Shown here: positions 4,126 to 39,635 of the stretch, one piece after another
Layout of the letters: each line of letters starts with the position of its first letter
How positions within the stretch are numbered: the stretch's first letter is position 1
Virus record (IMG/VR): IMGVR_UViG_2799112921_000001
Coordinates: 1 to 39,635 of that record
From: a virus
Direction: 5' to 3' (one strand)
DNA: 39,635 nt
The notes under the pieces: model-generated
What the model was told of the DNA's origin: nothing
The model's database searches: none
The model's input: the letters and a program-made list of their open reading frames with translations, nothing else
Program-made: the position numbers and the translations under genes

Positions 4126-6653
4126 GCTACACTCTCCCTTGAGACATTTCCAATCTTCAACTTGGAATCTGATTTGATTTTTGGATCATATTTTTTCTCA
4201 ACAATCTGTGCCTTAAAAACACTAGTATCTGGCAATTTTATATAAACAAAATCCCCAGCATTAAAATCTAATTTTTCTTCAGTTAAATCAACATTAATAT
4301 CTTCCGATTTATCTAACCATTGAGTATTATCACCAGAACCATTTAATTTCTTCCAACAACCAATAAGAACCTCTTCAACGCTTTGTTCAGATGTTTCAAA
4401 AGGTTCTAATTTTGGATTGTTATTTGTCATGTAAGTATAATTAAAATCAGCAGAGGTTATTGGAGCATAAATAAACATTTCTCCTTTTTGTTTCACATAA
4501 GGAAATGGAGATAATTCATATAATTTAGTGGAATCACATTTTAAACTTTTTAATGTTGCACCATCTATTTTAATACTAACATCCCCATATAAACTATCTA
4601 ATAGTGAACCCTCTGTTAAAATATCATTTAATCGTATTTTAGTTTCATCCTCGCCACCAATGTTTTCATCACTTGCAATTACTTCTTTATATTCTTGATG
4701 TACTTCTTGAATCGTCTCTTTTCTTGTTGTTTCTGTAGTTGCTTCAGCAGGTGTTAATTTTCTCCATTCACATCTGCCACCGCCCCATTTGTCACCACCA
4801 CAGTAACCACAGTAATCTGCATCGCAACCGCCTTTGCTCATACTACAAGTGATTTCTCCTTCATATACACCTTTGGGATTATCTGTGAGCGTGCCTGATT
4901 TTCCACATGCTGGACAGTAATTTTGCCATGTTTTGGTGAAACGTTTATATGGTGTTTTTGGATACCCACAACAGCCACAGGAAGGCATCATATTAACTGT
5001 TATAACATCAGTATTAGCTACTGACTCTGTAACTTCAATTTCTTTTTCTTCAATTGTTTCAAAGAATTTCATGAATTTAATTTCTTTTTTATTGAAATCA
5101 ATTTCAATATCCGTATTATCCTGTATTAGATTCACATCCCTGAATCCTATTACAAAAGATTCTGGGGTGTTTTGACTAATATTTTGTTTAGATATGGTTA
5201 TAGTGATGTTTTCTACACCAGATGTTTTTGTAACCACCATTACAGGGTATGATTCACTAATATAATTATCTAAATCATACATGTTTTTATCAGGCAAAGG
5301 ATTCATTGGCGTTTTATACGGAAGATTATTGGATTCGCTTGTATTTTGAGTATACATGAAGGGCATGTACTCATAATCTTCAGCATCTACAATATATTTT
5401 ACATTATATTCTACAGTAGAAGGTAAAATCTTATTTAAATTAGGATACTCATTAGATTTACATACTACTTTCTTTTTAGTAGTTAAATACTCTGCAAAGA
5501 TATATATCAACCATTGAAAATTGACTTTTCCATGATTAGTAATAATACCAGCAGGCACAGTGCCTGCTTTTTTAATATACTCCTGACAACGCATAGCTAA
5601 ATCAAAAATCTCCTCAATACTAAAAGCACAATCAAGATTATTACCATCACTCACCAATGGCGGTTCAATAATAATCAACTTAATAATCTCACTACCAGTA
5701 TTAAGAATATATTTAGTAGCCATATCAACAAATTGACTCATACCAATATTCAATGAAGTTTCTTCATTGAAAAAACGCATATTAATTGTATCTGGAATAT
5801 AACCAAAAGTAGTGATTTTTTCATGTAAATTTTTTGCAGCAACAAGTATATCACTAGTTAACGCACCATAATTCGCATAATAAGGCATTACTTTTTCATT
5901 ATTAATATCCAAATTATAAAATTGCTTTAAAATTTTCGTGTAATCTACATTACTATTATTCTCTGATTTAACAATAGGCATTATACCTAATGCATTTTTA
6001 GTTTCATCACTACTATACTCCAACTTATCAGTATTTTCACCAACAGTAACCCTTTCAAGAAGTTTATTATGTGTAACACCAAAATTTTCCGGTTTTAATA
6101 AACTAACATGCTTAACAATCTTATTATCCACTAAACTATAACTGTATTTAAACATTAAACCAGTAGTTTCTTCAATCTCTTTCAATAATGCATACTTTGA
6201 AATAGTACCATTAACATTAATCATTTTCAAAGAAGTATCTATACCAGGCAAATCAGTATTATCAACAATATAAAAACCTTCAAAAAGAAGATTTAAAAAT
6301 GTTTTATCTAACATAATAGTACTGCCTGAAACATGCCTGCGATAAAGAGGATCATTAATATAAAATGGGGCGCAATTATTTAACTCACAAACAATCTCTT
6401 CAGCTTCTAAACTTATTAAATTATCAACATAATCAACTTCAACTTCAGTATTGATTACAAACAAAACATTCTCTAAAAATATTTTATTACCTTGACAATA
6501 AAGATTTTGATCATGTTTCACATTAGTTAATTCACAATCAAAATCTAATGTTTTATAACCACCATAAGTGTCAGTGATTTCAACAGCAGCATCTGCATCA
6601 TCTATCCATTCCAGAATTTTTTCATCATGATCTAATATTATAATCATTCTCAT
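4122..6653 (-). CDS. Tal/tail-spike-like baseplate hub protein with pseudomurein-binding-like repeats and a Cys-rich insert
   Basis: N-terminus resembles prophage tail (Tal) proteins; PMBR-like segments at about 5480-5850; 10 Cys at about 4765-4990; lies downstream of the Dit-like gene. Confidence 0.65.
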   Translation of the reverse strand: MRMIIILDHDEKILEWIDDADAAVEITDTYGGYKTLDFDCELTNVKHDQNLYCQGNKIFLENVLFVINTEVEVDYVDNLISLEAEEIVCELNNCAPFYINDPLYRRHVSGSTIMLDKTFLNLLFEGFYIVDNTDLPGIDTSLKMINVNGTISKYALLKEIEETTGLMFKYSYSLVDNKIVKHVSLLKPENFGVTHNKLLERVTVGENTDKLEYSSDETKNALGIMPIVKSENNSNVDYTKILKQFYNLDINNEKVMPYYANYGALTSDILVAAKNLHEKITTFGYIPDTINMRFFNEETSLNIGMSQFVDMATKYILNTGSEIIKLIIIEPPLVSDGNNLDCAFSIEEIFDLAMRCQEYIKKAGTVPAGIITNHGKVNFQWLIYIFAEYLTTKKKVVCKSNEYPNLNKILPSTVEYNVKYIVDAEDYEYMPFMYTQNTSESNNLPYKTPMNPLPDKNMYDLDNYISESYPVMVVTKTSGVENITITISKQNISQNTPESFVIGFRDVNLIQDNTDIEIDFNKKEIKFMKFFETIEEKEIEVTESVANTDVITVNMMPSCGCCGYPKTPYKRFTKTWQNYCPACGKSGTLTDNPKGVYEGEITCSMSKGGCDADYCGYCGGDKWGGGRCEWRKLTPAEATTETTRKETIQEVHQEYKEVIASDENIGGEDETKIRLNDILTEGSLLDSLYGDVSIKIDGATLKSLKCDSTKLYELSPFPYVKQKGEMFIYAPITSADFNYTYMTNNNPKLEPFETSEQSVEEVLIGCWKKLNGSGDNTQWLDKSEDINVDLTEEKLDFNAGDFVYIKLPDTSVFKAQIVEKKYDPKIKSDSKLKIGNVSRESVA

Positions 6654-20461: not shown

Positions 20462-20482
20462 TCTTCACTATATACTCTCATA
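20462..20482 (-). promoter_or_regulatory. Candidate late promoter, copy 1 (TATGAGAGTATATAGTGAAGA)
   Basis: Exact 21-bp match to 30844-30864; intergenic, upstream of the head-tail operon; TATA-like core. Confidence 0.6.
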
Positions 20483-20645
20483 AATTAGAAACTTGTTTTT
20501 TGAACAAATTTTTTGAACAGAATAAGAATGTTTTAAAATTTTATTGAACACGAAAATTAGAAATGCGGTGTTTTTTATGATGGTGGTTGAACAGTTAAGT
20601 AGTTTTTAATGGTGAAAATTAAACAATATAAAAAAAATAGTGTGA

Positions 20646-20717
20646 TAGTCCTATCAGGAGTCGAACCTGAGTCAGCGGGACCAAAACCCACCATGATTGC
20701 CATTACACCATAGGACT
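20646..20717 (-). tRNA. tRNA-Gln(UUG), 72 nt, archaeal type, CCA not encoded
   Basis: Acceptor AGTCCTA/TAGGACT+A (A1:U72); D-stem GTGT/TCAT; anticodon stem GTGGG/CCCGC with loop TT-TTG-GT; T-arm TCAGG-TTCGACT-CCTGA. Confidence 0.95.
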
Positions 20718-20739
20718 AAAAAAAAATGAGTAAAAAAAT

Positions 20740-20833
20740 GGGAGGTACCCGGACTTGCACCAGCGGACTTATCTAAGCTACTTATCTAGCATCATTTTCA
20801 CTTAGTTGTTTTACTCGTTAAACTACACCCTCC
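20740..20833 (-). ncRNA. Aberrant tRNA-like element (possible intron-containing or degenerate tRNA)
   Basis: GGAGG(G)TG/TACCTCC acceptor with bulge; D-arm GTTT-AACGAGTA-AAAC; stem CTAAG/CTTAG closing a 23-nt loop; T-arm CTGG-TGCAAGT-CCGG. Confidence 0.55.
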
Positions 20834-27458: not shown

Positions 27459-29024
27459 TTATGCGTTAACTTTAGATTTAGGTTTACGCCAGAACCTCGC
27501 AGAACCTGTGCATGAATCAGCTATATCATCTTTTTTTCCTTCCTGACCAGTGAATGCTACAAGATGGTCTATGACTTTTATATTCCAGTCACCTTTTATC
27601 CAGTATATGCAACCGGCTTCGGCTAATGCTTCTAAGTCAAAACTACGTACATTCTTTTTATAGCGTACCTTGTCACCTCTGATGTTATATCCTTTAAATT
27701 TACGATTGTGACGGAATTTATTAATTAAAAGTTTACTTGATGCTCCGGGTTCCTGTTCTACACGGATTTTTACTGTTTTTCCATCTCTTTTTGCTGTTCT
27801 TTCAAAAGTTCTGAGTACTTGATTAGCTGTTAAGTTTCCTGTTACTAGGTTTAACATGTATAAGAATTCACCATCCCATCCAGTTAGCATTCCTGCTGTT
27901 GCATCTCCTTTTTTACCTGATGCACCAAAATCCCAGTACCTGAGTTTTGGTAAATCTGAAGGTATTTCTTCAGGTGTTAATTGATTATAAATAGTGTTCG
28001 TGGTTTCATCCATGAACCAATGACGTTTAAAGATATTTCCTTCACGTTCAACAGGCATGCCTTGATAAATAGCATTAAAGAGGTAGCTGCCCATTGCTCT
28101 TTTTTCAGCAGTTAACCAATCATAATCCCTTTGCTCTTCCCATAATACTTCATTTAGTTTTCTTCCCAGGATGTCTTTTTCAGGTTCAACACAGATAGCA
28201 GGAATATTTAAATCAACCCATGTATCATTAGGTATGCTGCCGCCATTACGTAGTATTTCGTAAGCAGTTATCGCATCAATAGTAGGTTCAGTAGTTTTAA
28301 TAATACCGTGCAAATCGTTTAAATGTAATCTTTGAGCAATAACTATAATAATTGGTGGTTTTTTATTAGTTCTACGTTCCAACCTAGATTTAACTACACC
28401 CTGGAACCAGTCTTGGAGTTTTTGCTGTTTGACTTCAGACTCTGCATCAGCAACATTTTTGATTGGATCATCAACTATGAATAGTCCAGCACCAAAACCC
28501 ATTATGGATCCTGCTGCACCTACTGCTAACATTTGTCCACGGTAACCATCCAGGTTAAATTTGTTTTTAGCTCTACTGTCATTGGATAATTTAACATTAT
28601 ACTTAGAGAGATAGCCATAGTGGTTTATTATGTCTTTTACTTGTCCACCAAACTCTGAAGCCAATCCCTGTGAATATGCTGATAATATTACTTTATCGTT
28701 AGGGTAATGTGCTAGAAAATAAGAAGCTAGATTCCGACTGATTAATGTTGATTTTCCATGACGACTAGGAACACTTAATAAAATACGTGAGACTTTACCC
28801 TGCAAAGCCTTTTCCAATAGTTCAATAATGACTAAATCAAAGTCACGTGGAGCCCATAAACCATTATTTACAAAAATACTCCACTCACCTAAGCTTAAAG
28901 GGCCACTATATTGAGTTGGAGTTGATGGATATAGATTTTTATTTTGATTGTATGGATTTTGACTTATCTCAGGGATTAACCCACTATTGTAAGGATTCTG
29001 ACTTAAAACCGCTGCATCAGACAT
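27459..29024 (-). CDS. terL: Terminase large subunit
   Basis: Walker A VPSRHGKS, Walker B FIVDDP, RNase H-like YWDFG and DDIADS. Confidence 0.95.
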   Translation of the reverse strand: MSDAAVLSQNPYNSGLIPEISQNPYNQNKNLYPSTPTQYSGPLSLGEWSIFVNNGLWAPRDFDLVIIELLEKALQGKVSRILLSVPSRHGKSTLISRNLASYFLAHYPNDKVILSAYSQGLASEFGGQVKDIINHYGYLSKYNVKLSNDSRAKNKFNLDGYRGQMLAVGAAGSIMGFGAGLFIVDDPIKNVADAESEVKQQKLQDWFQGVVKSRLERRTNKKPPIIIVIAQRLHLNDLHGIIKTTEPTIDAITAYEILRNGGSIPNDTWVDLNIPAICVEPEKDILGRKLNEVLWEEQRDYDWLTAEKRAMGSYLFNAIYQGMPVEREGNIFKRHWFMDETTNTIYNQLTPEEIPSDLPKLRYWDFGASGKKGDATAGMLTGWDGEFLYMLNLVTGNLTANQVLRTFERTAKRDGKTVKIRVEQEPGASSKLLINKFRHNRKFKGYNIRGDKVRYKKNVRSFDLEALAEAGCIYWIKGDWNIKVIDHLVAFTGQEGKKDDIADSCTGSARFWRKPKSKVNA

Positions 29025-29027
29025 AAT

Positions 29028-29657
29028 TTAGTCATCCCCTCTCTTATTTACTAGGCTCCAAAGCATTTCTCTTCTAGATTCTAGGAAGTCATCAGTTTCC
29101 CATACTGGATTATCATCAACAGGCACTAATTCCTGAGCTGTTTCAGCTTCATTAAGATAACCCACACGATCGTATAATCTCTGAGTAACAAGATTTTTTG
29201 TTTCTTGATTTTTATTAATTCTGTAAGTATTATCAATACCTTGCATTTTTTCTTGATTGATTAGCTTCTCATGCTTTTCATCAAAAGAATCAATTTGCTT
29301 TAAATCAGTTATTGTGTCTTTATCTACTCTTCTTTCAATACGTTCACGTGCAGTATCACGTGTAGCTTGTAATTTATCTGTTTTAAAAATGGGATATTGA
29401 GCTTCCCATTCGTATTTATCATACCATTTTGTCTTAACAGTATTATATTCAGGAGTTTTTAAAGAACCATCATTATTTTTAAATTCCCATTCAATACCTC
29501 TCGAATTTACGATTTCTGAAAAATGGTTACAAAAATAGTATAAGCTTATTTCATCGTATATATCATCAAAATGCACTTCAAACCATAATAATTTTACTGC
29601 ATGAGGAAAAGGTTTTTCATTGACTCCTTTTTTGCGTAAACGTTTATGGTAAGGCAT
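29028..29657 (-). CDS. Putative terminase small subunit
   Basis: 209 aa directly upstream of terL; helical/coiled central region. Assignment by synteny only. Confidence 0.55.
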   Translation of the reverse strand: MPYHKRLRKKGVNEKPFPHAVKLLWFEVHFDDIYDEISLYYFCNHFSEIVNSRGIEWEFKNNDGSLKTPEYNTVKTKWYDKYEWEAQYPIFKTDKLQATRDTARERIERRVDKDTITDLKQIDSFDEKHEKLINQEKMQGIDNTYRINKNQETKNLVTQRLYDRVGYLNEAETAQELVPVDDNPVWETDDFLESRREMLWSLVNKRGDD

Positions 29658-29715
29658 ATAAATTCCGCCATGTGAAAATTTTGAAAAAAAAAATAATTAA
29701 TTTTATTTTTTTTCT

Positions 29716-30072
29716 TTAATTTTGATCTTCTATTTCTTTTAGATGCTGTAGTACTAATTTTTCTGCTATTTCTTCTGCTCTTTCATCTATTGCTTTGTCG
29801 ATGAGTTCTAGTTCTTCTTTTTTCTTTTTTTCTGCCCATTTGTCTATGATTGTTACGATTATTATTGCTGTTATGACACTTATTATGCCTATTTGTAGTT
29901 CTACGTTGCTGATGCCTTTGCTTGTCATTCGGTTGCTTAGTCCTGTTATGATTAATCCTATACCACTGCTTATTAGTGTGGTGGTGGTGACTGTTTTTGC
30001 AAAGTTTTTGATCCATACTGTTTTTCGGTAGGGTATTGTTTCTGTTAGTTTAGATGTCATTGTCCCCACCAT
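29716..30072 (-). CDS. Two-TM membrane protein (holin-like candidate)
   Basis: Hydrophobic LISSGIGLIITGL and IGIISVITAIIIVTII segments, then a highly charged C-terminus. Confidence 0.6.
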   Translation of the reverse strand: MVGTMTSKLTETIPYRKTVWIKNFAKTVTTTTLISSGIGLIITGLSNRMTSKGISNVELQIGIISVITAIIIVTIIDKWAEKKKKEELELIDKAIDERAEEIAEKLVLQHLKEIEDQN

Positions 30073-30415
30073 TTAGTGTTTCTGGATTTTCATCACTTTT
30101 GCAGTCTTTGCAGTCTTCACAGTCGCAGTATACTTCTGCTGTTTGTAGGTTGAAATGTTTTATTCCATAGTTGATGTAGTCTTCGATTGTGATTTCGTTT
30201 CGTTTAAAGAATGTGTTCATGTATTTCATATCTATATACGATAGTGCAATTGCTATGATTATTCCTAGTGCTTGCATTATTTCGGTTTCTTGACCTGTTA
30301 AATCTAGACCAAAATATAATAGTAGTATTTTTATTAACCATGGAGTGGTGTATCCTGCGATTAATAAACCTATTGTTTTGAAAATACTTGACCCATTTCC
30401 TATAATATTTGACAT
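30050..30415 (-). CDS. Two-TM membrane protein (holin-like candidate)
   Basis: IGLLIAGYTTPWLIKILLLYF and ALGIIIAIALSYI segments; CDCEDCKDC near the C-terminus; GGTGA SD. Confidence 0.6.
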   Translation of the reverse strand: MSNIIGNGSSIFKTIGLLIAGYTTPWLIKILLLYFGLDLTGQETEIMQALGIIIAIALSYIDMKYMNTFFKRNEITIEDYINYGIKHFNLQTAEVYCDCEDCKDCKSDENPETLNGGDNDI

Positions 30416-30444
30416 TAGTTATCACCTTTCCATATTTTATTAAG

Positions 30445-30561
30445 TGGGGATGGGCGGATTCAAACCCCCCAGCAGAGAGAAAAGACTTAAGAACTCCACA
30501 TCAAAAAATGTAAGAAGCAACAAATCTAAAAAAAAGTGTCTTTTCTTTTAATTACACCCCC
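30445..30561 (-). ncRNA. tRNA-like RNA lacking a D-arm, with a long helix in place of the anticodon arm
   Basis: Acceptor GGGGGTG/CATCCCC+A (7 bp); T-arm GGGGG-TTTGAAT-CCGCC; 9-bp helix AGAAAAGAC/GTCTTTTCT enclosing about 51 nt. Confidence 0.55.
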
Positions 30562-30584
30562 CAAAAAAATCCTACAATTTTAGT

Positions 30585-30609
30585 AGGAAGGAGGGGGAAT
30601 CGAACCCCC
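30585..30609 (-). ncRNA. Isolated perfect tRNA T-arm plus 3' acceptor-like strand
   Basis: GGGGG-TTCGATT-CCCCC-TCCTTCC-T; no matching 5' acceptor strand found nearby. Confidence 0.4.
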
Positions 30610-30674: not shown

Positions 30675-30824
30675 TTAAAAATTCAACCAAAGATAATTTC
30701 TACGCAAAACTTTCCCACAATGCTTACAAAAAACCTCATCATGAAATTCATCATACAATGCATCGTGTTTTTTACAACCTTTGCAAAAAATTTCCAACGA
30801 TTTATAATTTTTATATTTTGACAT
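30675..30824 (-). CDS. Stand-alone TFB/TFIIB-type zinc ribbon protein (49 aa from ATG 30824)
   Basis: CKGC-x15-CKHC with LYDEFHDEVFC, matching the TFB N-terminal C-x2-C-x15-C-x2-C pattern. Confidence 0.65.
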   Translation of the reverse strand: MSKYKNYKSLEIFCKGCKKHDALYDEFHDEVFCKHCGKVLRRNYLWLNF

Positions 30825-30843
30825 GTAGAACACATTTTTTTCA

Positions 30844-30864
30844 TCTTCACTATATACTCTCATA
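30844..30864 (-). promoter_or_regulatory. Candidate late promoter, copy 2
   Basis: Exact match to 20462-20482; upstream of the ribbon/tRNA-like/holin/terminase unit. Confidence 0.6.
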
Positions 30865-34386: not shown

Positions 34387-35007
34387 TTATTCCCCCCTTA
34401 GCTTATCTTTAACCATATTCAACTCAGTAAAATCCCCTTTACCCAGATTACACTGCGCACATAACGTTTGCAAATTATCTAAATCATTAGTTCCACCTTT
34501 ACTAACAGGCATAATATGATCAACATGCAATTTCACACCATCCTCAATGGTAGCACCACATAATTGACAAGTAGAATTATCTCTATCTAAAACCTGTACT
34601 CTGAGTCTTTTTGAAATTGGTATTCTTTGTGGCATATCATTTTTAGATTTAACTATATCTGTCCAGATTATACCTAGAGAACAATTAACGTTTGGAATAT
34701 CGATAGCCGGCATAATACCAAACCACCATGTTTTATAAGCCATAAGCTCTTTCTTTAAGGTTAAATTCACCCCATTATCGTAACTCCAGTCACCGTAAGG
34801 AGAAAACTGTAATATGGCTTCTTTAACCACATAACCATCAAAAGTACCTTCCATTTCAATAAGAGAATATACCTCCTTAACTAATCTTGAGTTTTTAATA
34901 GATTTATTAAGGTCAAGCACATATCTTCGGCTGTCTGGTTTGTCAGTTGTACCAATTATCTCTTGAAGTCCTTCAAATTGAAATCTTTCGTTTAAGTAAT
35001 CGCTCAT
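34387..35007 (-). CDS. HNH endonuclease (C-terminal HNH, unknown N-terminal domain)
   Basis: RDNSTCQLCG...LHVDHIMPVSKGGTNDLDNLQTLCAQCNLGK. Confidence 0.9.
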   Translation of the reverse strand: MSDYLNERFQFEGLQEIIGTTDKPDSRRYVLDLNKSIKNSRLVKEVYSLIEMEGTFDGYVVKEAILQFSPYGDWSYDNGVNLTLKKELMAYKTWWFGIMPAIDIPNVNCSLGIIWTDIVKSKNDMPQRIPISKRLRVQVLDRDNSTCQLCGATIEDGVKLHVDHIMPVSKGGTNDLDNLQTLCAQCNLGKGDFTELNMVKDKLRGE

Positions 35008-38465: not shown

Positions 38466-39635
38466 TTATAGTAGTTTGTTAATTTTACTAATTAACTCAT
38501 CACCCAGACCATCATAAATAATACGCTCCAAATTATCCTGCCTGGACCTAATATCATTAAGCTCACTTTTCAAAGTATCATTCTCACTTTGTAAATTTTC
38601 ATTCTCTTCAACAGCAACATCCAACTTCGTACGTACTTTATTAATATCCTCAACCACCAAATAAGGTAAACACTTAATATACTCTTCTTTTAACACTTCT
38701 GGTTTAATTCGTATATATGATTCATGTGCAACACCAGGAACTTTACGACCTTCCAACAAATTAATCTTATCTAAACCCATACCCGCTTCAGCTAATTGCG
38801 TAGCATGATAACGTCTCAACATATGAGGAGCAAAACGTGAATAAGTTCCAGCTTTACCTAAGCCTAATTGATCATTAACTTCTTTAAAAATTTTATTTAA
38901 ATACCTATCCTGAATTTTAAAAAGTTTATTATTCTTATTGAAATCATCTGTTCTACTGTATAAGTAATTATTAATAGATTCAACAGCCTCAGGACTGCAA
39001 AAAGTATAAAAATTTTGATTAGTTTTTTGTCTTTTCAAATAAAAAGTAGGTATAATATCTATTTCAGAATCATTCATCTTCTCAATAGCTGTGAAAATAT
39101 CATTACTATGGTGAAATTCTTTTGTAAATTTAAGATAATCTTTTATAGTGATTTTTAATGTATCTACTCGGCTAACTCCACTGCTTGACATGAATAATGT
39201 TATTGCTTTTAGTAAAGGATTTTTGATTTCAATAATATGTTTTAATAATTCACGATCAGGTAATTCATTAGGCAATATGGGTGTTGGTTTTTTCACATTA
39301 GCCATACTGAAATAAGGTAGTCGTGGAATATTTATTTCAAAATGACGGAAAATACTTAATACTGCTGTTAAGTATAATTCTGCTGTTTTTTTCATGTATT
39401 TTTCAAATAAGTATCTTCTGTAATCTATTAATATTGGTCTTAATGTACTATTTTTCCAGTTGATATTTTGTGTTTCTTCTGCATCAGCAATGTTTAGTAA
39501 TTCAGGTAGTGTTTTTCCAGTGTATTTTTCAAAGTGTGTTATGCCTCTTGTATAATTTGTTATTGTACTTTCACTGCTGTTTCTTTCATAAAAAAATTGG
39601 GATAGTATTTGGTCTGTGGTTTTCATGAATTTCAT
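38466..39635 (-). CDS. int: Tyrosine recombinase/integrase
   Basis: SSSGVSRVD (R), HMLRRYHAT (HxxR), LEGRK, ESYIR (Y); N-terminal SAM-like core-binding region; C-terminal coiled coil. Confidence 0.95.
   Translation of the reverse strand: MKFMKTTDQILSQFFYERNSSESTITNYTRGITHFEKYTGKTLPELLNIADAEETQNINWKNSTLRPILIDYRRYLFEKYMKKTAELYLTAVLSIFRHFEINIPRLPYFSMANVKKPTPILPNELPDRELLKHIIEIKNPLLKAITLFMSSSGVSRVDTLKITIKDYLKFTKEFHHSNDIFTAIEKMNDSEIDIIPTFYLKRQKTNQNFYTFCSPEAVESINNYLYSRTDDFNKNNKLFKIQDRYLNKIFKEVNDQLGLGKAGTYSRFAPHMLRRYHATQLAEAGMGLDKINLLEGRKVPGVAHESYIRIKPEVLKEEYIKCLPYLVVEDINKVRTKLDVAVEENENLQSENDTLKSELNDIRSRQDNLERIIYDGLGDELISKINKLL

Follow-up and report, generated by a model that had tools for sequence, protein, structure and literature searches.

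The stack of acceptor stem and T arm is the main requirement of RNase P, tRNase Z and the CCA-adding enzyme. MHV68 tRNA-miRNA units and the MALAT1 mascRNA are small RNAs released by tRNA-processing enzymes, and tRNA scaffolds have also been engineered. In Haloferax volcanii, a t-element located upstream of the 5S rRNA acts as a tRNA-like processing signal (Holzle et al. 2008, 2012, as cited in PMC4326828) and has also served as an engineered processing signal (PMC4326828). In plant mitochondria, t-elements are found at mRNA ends (PMC1920247), and the haloarchaeal virus HF2 contains a tRNA-like attP gene, HrrHF2_450 (PMC8707807). Almost nothing is known about the organization and processing of late transcripts in tailed archaeal viruses, and our literature search found no description of elements such as the one reported here in viruses of methanogens.

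The window, i.e., the whole 39,635-nt stretch of DNA that was analysed (IMG/VR record IMGVR_UViG_2799112921_000001), corresponds to C86:12510-52144 of a 2.28-Mb archaeal genome containing GC-rich archaeal tRNAs and no tmRNA detectable by ARAGORN. The relatives retrieved via its terminase gene were Methanobrevibacter, and the window is a provirus whose host is a methanogenic archaeon of this genus from gut or rumen. Immediately before its first late gene lies a 117-nt D-armless tRNA-like element (30445..30561, minus strand), which is supported by its sequence, by the Rfam tRNA model, by a covariance model of its homologues (R1) and by covariation.

Architecture and genomic setting of the element

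Along the minus strand, the gene order runs from the integrase (38466-39635, 8 kb from the element) through an ERF recombinase, an HNH endonuclease (34387-35007, from the window ORF scan), many small ORFs and a zinc-ribbon ORF to a gap and then the late module. This gap, 259 nt between the zinc-ribbon ORF and an ORF of 121 aa, holds the element. The 121-aa ORF (30050..30415, minus strand) is the first of the late module; it contains hydrophobic stretches and is putatively holin-like. Two more ORFs (118 and 209 aa) come next, and after them TerL, portal and the remaining genes of a tailed-virus late module. Pfam and PHROG provided no function for the 121-aa, 118-aa and 209-aa ORFs. Between the 3′ end of the element and the ATG of the first late ORF is a spacer of 29 nt (30416..30444, minus strand), inside which a Shine-Dalgarno-like GGTGAT was found (30421-30426).

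The zinc-ribbon ORF (30675..30863, minus strand, 62 aa) is TFB-like and has a C-x2-C...C-x2-C arrangement, with weak, sub-threshold Pfam matches to Zn_Ribbon_TF and S27e. Homologues sharing the pattern C-x2-C-x15-17-C-x2-C and YDxxHGExxC were present in L011, L022, L024, L026, L108, L141, L158, L160, L163 and L171. In each of the 11 loci that carry a tRNA-like element, the gene is located 114-445 nt upstream of it, and it is missing upstream of the tRNA in the three true-tRNA loci checked; gene and element may form a functional pair. Between them in the window is a T-arm-like GC hairpin, GGGGG TTCGATT CCCCC (30593..30609, minus strand), which matches the 3′ end of the Rfam tmRNA model at 16.7 bits against a cut-off of 47 bits. 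L171 (1289-1305) and G106 have the same hairpin upstream of their elements, so that it is conserved, and no 5′ acceptor partner for it (GGRRGGR required) was found upstream on the coding strand. Directly 5′ of the element, a hairpin formed by TCCTAC/GTAGGA is followed by T7 (30563..30588, minus strand). The motif ATGAGAGTATATAGTGAAGA occurs at 30844-30864, before the ribbon gene, and again at 20462-20482 (minus strand), before the protease and capsid genes. At the end of the terminase-portal-MuF block (20644-20833) are a tRNA-Gln(UUG) (20644-20718, minus strand) and, upstream of it, a second odd tRNA-like sequence (20740-20833), which has a D arm, an anticodon loop larger than normal, and TGCAAGT as its T loop.

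The element itself is composed of an acceptor stem, a linker, a long helix with an AU-rich body, a T arm and the discriminator A73. The 5′ acceptor strand GGGGGTG (30555..30561) pairs at seven of seven positions, one of them G:U, with the 3′ strand CATCCCC (30446..30452), next to which the discriminator A is found at 30445. T8 and A9 (30554-30553) are followed by an AU-rich linker in place of a D arm. The body (30478..30546) comprises a 9-bp helix, formed by AGAAAAGAC (30546-30538) with GTCTTTTCT (30486-30478), and the 51 nt that it encloses, including an inner hairpin CTTC..ACAT/ATGT GGAG (30494-30517). The T arm, GGGGG TTTGAAT CCGCC (30453..30469), is seen both in the sequence and in the Rfam alignment. 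The acceptor stem, discriminator A, U8-A9, 9-bp helix, hairpin and T arm listed in a preliminary description of this locus were all recovered at these positions on the minus strand, and its remark that G3:U70 is lacking also holds, since the pair in the window is G3:C70. It did not mention a G.G mismatch at T-stem pair 51:63 of the window copy.

Hence a 7-bp acceptor stem, a 5-bp T stem (with one G.G), a 7-nt T loop and a discriminator base are present, and neither a D arm nor an anticodon arm with its 7-nt loop could be drawn in any of six homologues. Position 56 of the T loop is U, which removes the usual G19:C56 contact; the 32 host tRNAs found all have C there. Runs of T8 and T6 occur inside the element, where archaeal transcription termination could take place. 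For the window sequence alone, minimum free energy folding favours a different inner fold, and the fold energy of the element is slightly better than that of shuffled sequences (z = -2.4).

The Rfam tRNA model RF00005 aligned end to end with exactly 30445-30561 on the minus strand, at 17.6 bits (E 0.65), which is below the gathering score of 29 bits, and ARAGORN in default mode reported no tRNA or tmRNA at the element in the window; a weak or missing match in tRNA finders had been foreseen in the preliminary description. Scanning both strands of the whole 2.28-Mb genome for a 7-bp acceptor stem paired throughout together with a T arm yielded five strong long-insert matches, consisting of the element, the intron-bearing tRNA-Trp and tRNA-Met of the host, and two artefacts from adjacent tRNAs. 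R1, from whose construction the window was left out, matches the window element at 53.3 bits (E 4e-10). The element is not a product of chance. It is single-copy in the genome and is not copied from any host tRNA, the best shared stretch being 14 nt in the T loop, and a DNA similarity search with the intergenic region against a phage collection and the genomes of 60 relatives gave only AT-rich chance matches. The host tRNA-Trp (G000:C102:20-167) carries an intron of ~75 nt with C/D-box motifs, and an intron is also present in the host tRNA-Met (G000:C127:8435-8545). A C/D-box sRNA was considered for the element and rejected, as its body has UGAUGU and no conserved D box, unlike the tRNA-Trp intron.

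Homologues, covariation and the slot before the first late gene

With TerL and the 121-aa protein serving as anchors, related proviruses were collected both within the genus and in IMG/VR. Elements of the same architecture were found in the same place in G096, G071, L108 and L171/L172, together with a shorter form in G017 (L141) and one with another body in G106. The covariance model R1 was built from G096, G071 and L108 only and used for Infernal alignment, the window being excluded because MAFFT misaligned the 5′ end when it was included. L171 was matched by R1 at 67 bits. Weak matches in the genus (23-31 bits) were mostly coding or low-complexity sequence and were discarded, and L141 (37 bits) and G106 (27 bits, partial) were kept.

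The elements of this family, hereafter family B, were present in four of 103 genus genomes (G000, G071, G096 and G017), or five counting the body-replaced G106, as well as in three IMG/VR contigs. An R1 search of 137 genomes from 26 other genera of the family gave no match. An exact-pattern scan of IMG/VR recovered one true homologue (L108) and three false matches in coding DNA, and a second pattern scan of IMG/VR added nothing new. In a metagenome scan with the downstream protein, 27 loci of a distant type (~40% identity) were obtained; none had an adjoining tRNA-like element under strict criteria or a tRNA by ARAGORN, and three of the 27 showed a T-arm-like match ~450-660 nt upstream. The isolated relative Methanobacterium virus Drs3, whose TerL is 63% identical, has no T-arm-like motif upstream of the terminase, indicating that the element is not essential to this type of virus.

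In the six-homologue alignment, 95.7% of the cells at paired positions were paired, against ~55% when the partners were slid by 1-3 columns, and eight pairs had changed on both sides, a count reached in 0 of 500 shuffles; because an alignment fitted to the model was used for a small set of related homologues, these counts overstate independence and are to be read as supportive and not as a formal test. The acceptor stem was 100% paired with three pairs changed on both sides, the T stem was 96.7% paired with two such pairs, and the inner hairpin contained another three. The preliminary description had made its case depend on conservation and covariation of the acceptor and T stems, and both properties were found in both stems across the homologues. 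The 6-bp core of the long helix, GAAGAC/GTCTTT in the homologues, is invariant in sequence and thus neither supported nor refuted by covariation. RNAalifold independently predicted the acceptor stem, the inner hairpin and the T arm, and each homologue folded singly formed the acceptor stem and T arm. Many of the pairs on the coding strand are G:U and the reverse strand folds differently, so that the functional form should be a sense RNA instead of a DNA structure.

The element is under purifying selection. Between the window and G096/G071 its identity (69-70%) equals that of the adjacent protein gene (70% at the nucleotide level), compared with 44% and 27% for the upstream 150 nt, 42% and 38% for the 3′ spacer, and 41-43% for shuffled sequences. 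In L171 versus G106, the acceptor and T arm are identical at 32 of 34 positions, with a body of 39% identity (shuffled 36 ± 3) and a neighbouring gene of 58%. Since this near-identity persists while the body is unrelated and the adjacent gene has diverged to 58%, the tRNA top half is the most strongly constrained part of the element. The body can be either conserved, as in family B, or replaced outright, as in G106. When window positions 27459-30561 were compared with L024 and L026, mosaicism was observed: identity is 70-74% in the element and the 121-aa gene and drops to 42% in TerL, which places a module boundary between them.

In related Methanobrevibacter proviruses, the same slot is filled by long-insert acceptor/T-arm elements that belong to no fewer than three unrelated families. 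Family A is represented by L011 4177-4447, L022 3564-3790 and L163 1158-1366, and family C by L011 4465-4641 and L160 about 1326-1449. Compensatory changes are found in the acceptor stems of family A (GAGTCTG/CAGACTC vs GGTTCTG/CAGAACC) and family C (GCGGGTT/AACCCGC vs GCTGGTT/TACCAGC), and in the T stems of both. In other relatives the slot is filled by a true tRNA-Trp(CCA), tRNA-Ser(GCU) or tRNA-Gln(UUG). The tRNA or tRNA-like element has its 3′ end 16-75 nt (in most cases 29-45 nt) ahead of the start codon of the first late ORF, and a Shine-Dalgarno-like GGTGAT lies in this interval at related loci. The conserved inner block of family A, AGTTAGCTCA.A.GTATA, has a GTATA(T/C)A core resembling the ATGAGAGTATATAGTGAAGA motif mentioned above. 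Provirus-borne tRNA-Trp genes without an intron were observed in L023 (2130-2203), L033 (3284-3354), L027 (5133-5208) and L159 (1018-1091). Furthermore, the IMG/VR relative L012 contains a possible mini tRNA-like hairpin of ~52 nt at ~4165-4216 (plus strand), ~440 nt upstream of the late ORF, with the sequence TTGGATT...TTAGG TTCGATT CCTGG ATTCCAA and one acceptor mismatch.

Proposed processing by host tRNA-maturation enzymes and other readings

The host encodes the archaeal RNase P RNA, RNase Z and a CCA-adding enzyme, and the element is a non-decoding tRNA-like fold whose intact acceptor/T-arm stack ends 29 nt before the first late ORF. Given the conserved and covarying top half, its exchange with true tRNAs, the near-constant distance to the late gene and the presence of the host enzymes, we consider it moderately probable that the element is a t-element-like handle on which RNase P and tRNase Z of the host would cut, releasing an RNA of ~117 nt. 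What the true tRNAs and the three unrelated families have in common is the acceptor/T-arm stack, which is the main determinant for these enzymes, so that the t-element is the reading best supported by the comparison. An RNase P/RNase Z processing signal had already been proposed in the preliminary description, and it is this part of the earlier interpretation that the comparative evidence favours, its tmRNA-like part being only topological.

We infer the following course of events. The element, probably tRNA-derived and retaining the 7 + 5 bp stack, the 7-nt T loop and A73, would be transcribed within the late transcript, embedded in a long untranslated leader that would reach from the zinc-ribbon gene to the first late gene; inspection of the homologues by eye revealed no promoter-like box at a suitable distance. 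Host RNase P would cut before the G at 30561 and host tRNase Z after the A at 30445, and the two cuts would separate the ribbon-gene mRNA from the late mRNA, leaving the latter with a defined 29-nt leader that bears the Shine-Dalgarno sequence. The ~117-nt D-armless tRNA-like RNA freed at the same time could be tailed by the CCA-adding enzyme, and the AU-rich body that replaces the anticodon arm may represent lineage-specific cargo. The G.G mismatch in the T stem of the window copy and the T8 and T6 runs inside the element speak against processing. The family-B body, which would not be needed for cutting, is as conserved as the stems, and this argues against a bare cutting signal and suggests that the released RNA may itself be active. 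It is doubtful, though conceivable, that the released RNA of 117-120 nt would be a CCA-tailed, perhaps aminoacylated riboregulator, which together with the TFB zinc-ribbon protein would switch host transcription or translation to the late genes. If true, this would be an RNA device of an archaeal virus without a described counterpart, going beyond a cutting signal. The tight synteny with the stand-alone TFB zinc-ribbon gene hints at a larger late-switch module.

The locus might alternatively encode a tRNA-scaffolded viral small RNA acting in trans, in which the top half would only release or stabilise the molecule and the body or the overall shape would be the effector, either as a decoy that engages a synthetase or a tRNA-targeting nuclease of the host or as a protein- or RNA-binding regulator. 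This tentative and rather unlikely possibility fits all the processing evidence, and it could account for the covarying inner hairpin and for a family-B body conserved at the level of a coding gene between randomised flanks. G096 (L024 2824-2942, minus strand) and G071 (L026 2826-2932, minus strand) also carry G1:C72, G2:C71, G3:U70, G4:C69 and A73, in which G3:U70 with A73 is the universal AlaRS identity set. This classical alanine set is absent in the window, L108, L171 and L141, and G3:U70 is not conserved, the pair being G:C in the window, A:U in L108 and L171, and U:A in L141. The wholly replaced body of G106, beneath a top half that is still identical at 32 of 34 positions, and the filling of the same slot by true tRNAs and unrelated bodies likewise count against this reading.

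The possibility that the region is a cis-acting leader controlling late expression, for instance via oligo-T read-through or the translation of the initial late gene, possibly in concert with the zinc-ribbon protein, is improbable. Late-leader control regions of bacterial phages occupy a similar position between regulatory and late genes, and the leader here is 250-600 nt long with several T runs of at least 6 nt and alternative inner folds. The presence of the ribbon gene upstream of all 11 tRNA-like elements and none of the three true tRNAs would also agree with such control, but these co-occurrence counts are small and come from related loci, and RNA binding by the ribbon protein is only a conjecture. 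At 31% G+C, any intergenic DNA would be expected to contain T runs, and the tRNA shape of the conserved part would be left unexplained.

That the element is a decaying, functionless viral tRNA pseudogene is decidedly improbable. Relatives do have true tRNAs in this slot, neither D arm nor anticodon is left, and the window copy has its T-stem mismatch; yet the acceptor and T stems are held paired by compensatory changes, conservation matches that of the neighbouring coding gene between random flanks, and the top half remains at 32 of 34 identical positions against a gene background of 58%. A DNA-level site is very unlikely, be it an att site for an integrase or satellite, comparable to the tRNA-like attP of HF2, or a cos or pac site upstream of the terminase. 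In line with this reading are the interpretation of haloviral tRNA-like genes as attP (PMC8707807), the position upstream of the terminase genes with an HNH endonuclease nearby (34387-35007), and the fact that the T-arm/3′ acceptor block is the best-conserved part. Nevertheless, the integrase (38466-39635) is 8 kb away in a provirus that is already integrated, no more than 14 nt are shared with any host tRNA, the two acceptor strands covary despite the distance between them, and the many G:U pairs exist on the coding strand only. A decoding tRNA with an unusual intron has next to no likelihood, for although ARAGORN also misses the long-intron host tRNA-Trp and tRNA-Met and the acceptor stem with A73 is like that of tRNA-Trp, no D arm, 7-nt anticodon loop or bulge-helix-bulge could be built in any homologue, the ARAGORN intron search was negative for the family-B loci L141, L155, L157 and L158 (the window being run in default mode only), the Rfam tRNA score of 17.6 bits falls short of the 29-bit cut-off, and host intron-bearing tRNAs retain full cloverleaf exons.

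Methanobrevibacter is the dominant methanogen of rumen and gut, and with the t-element-like handle its viruses would gain a testable candidate RNA-processing site. The tRNA genes at this position in related viruses may be explained likewise. As a natural "tRNA scaffold", the element might also serve for RNA expression in methanogens.

Comparison with known tRNA-like systems

The tmRNA-like architecture noted in the preliminary description holds as a topology: like tmRNA (Rfam RF00023), the element combines an acceptor stem with a T arm, lacks a D stem, and carries in place of an anticodon arm a large insert reached through a long helix. Identity with tmRNA does not follow from it. The window has G3:C70, with G3:U70, the pair through which tmRNA is charged with alanine, only in G096 and G071, and the length of ~117 nt compares with 374 positions in the Rfam model. 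A conserved tag frame is absent, the short frames in the body varying in phase and length among homologues; no pseudoknots were seen in the element; and SmpB (PF01668) was found neither in the host genome, which is 92% complete, nor among the window ORFs scanned. Of the tmRNA models applied to the element, ARAGORN gave no match and Rfam matched only the 17-nt upstream hairpin (16.7 against 47 bits).

D-armless mitochondrial tRNAs have the same order of acceptor stem, short linker, central helix, linker and T arm. In contrast to them, the element lacks a 7-nt anticodon loop, its helix encloses 50-60 nt, and there is no sign of decoding. The tRNA-like attP gene of HF2 is comparable as a low-scoring tRNA-like gene in an archaeal tailed virus, whereas the element is not beside the integrase, matches no host tRNA 3′ end, and has both acceptor strands kept by compensatory change. 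In the MHV68 and MALAT1 RNAs and in engineered scaffolds, a tRNA-like module is likewise a handle that releases or stabilises an attached RNA; those systems are eukaryotic or artificial, whereas here the host is archaeal and the cargo would lie inside the tRNA-like fold.

Like t-elements, the element is a tRNA-like fold that does not decode and keeps its acceptor and T arms intact, located in a longer transcript, as predicted here, next to the 5′ end of a downstream RNA. Known t-elements are recognised by host RNase P and tRNase Z, and both enzymes are encoded by the present host. The element differs in being viral, in belonging to a late-operon leader, and in having a body of 75-240 nt in place of the D and anticodon arms; moreover, the family-B body is itself conserved. 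A tRNA top half standing before the first late gene and swappable with real tRNAs suggests punctuation of viral mRNA by host tRNA-maturation enzymes, the same logic that is used in mitochondria and, for the 5S rRNA, in Haloferax.
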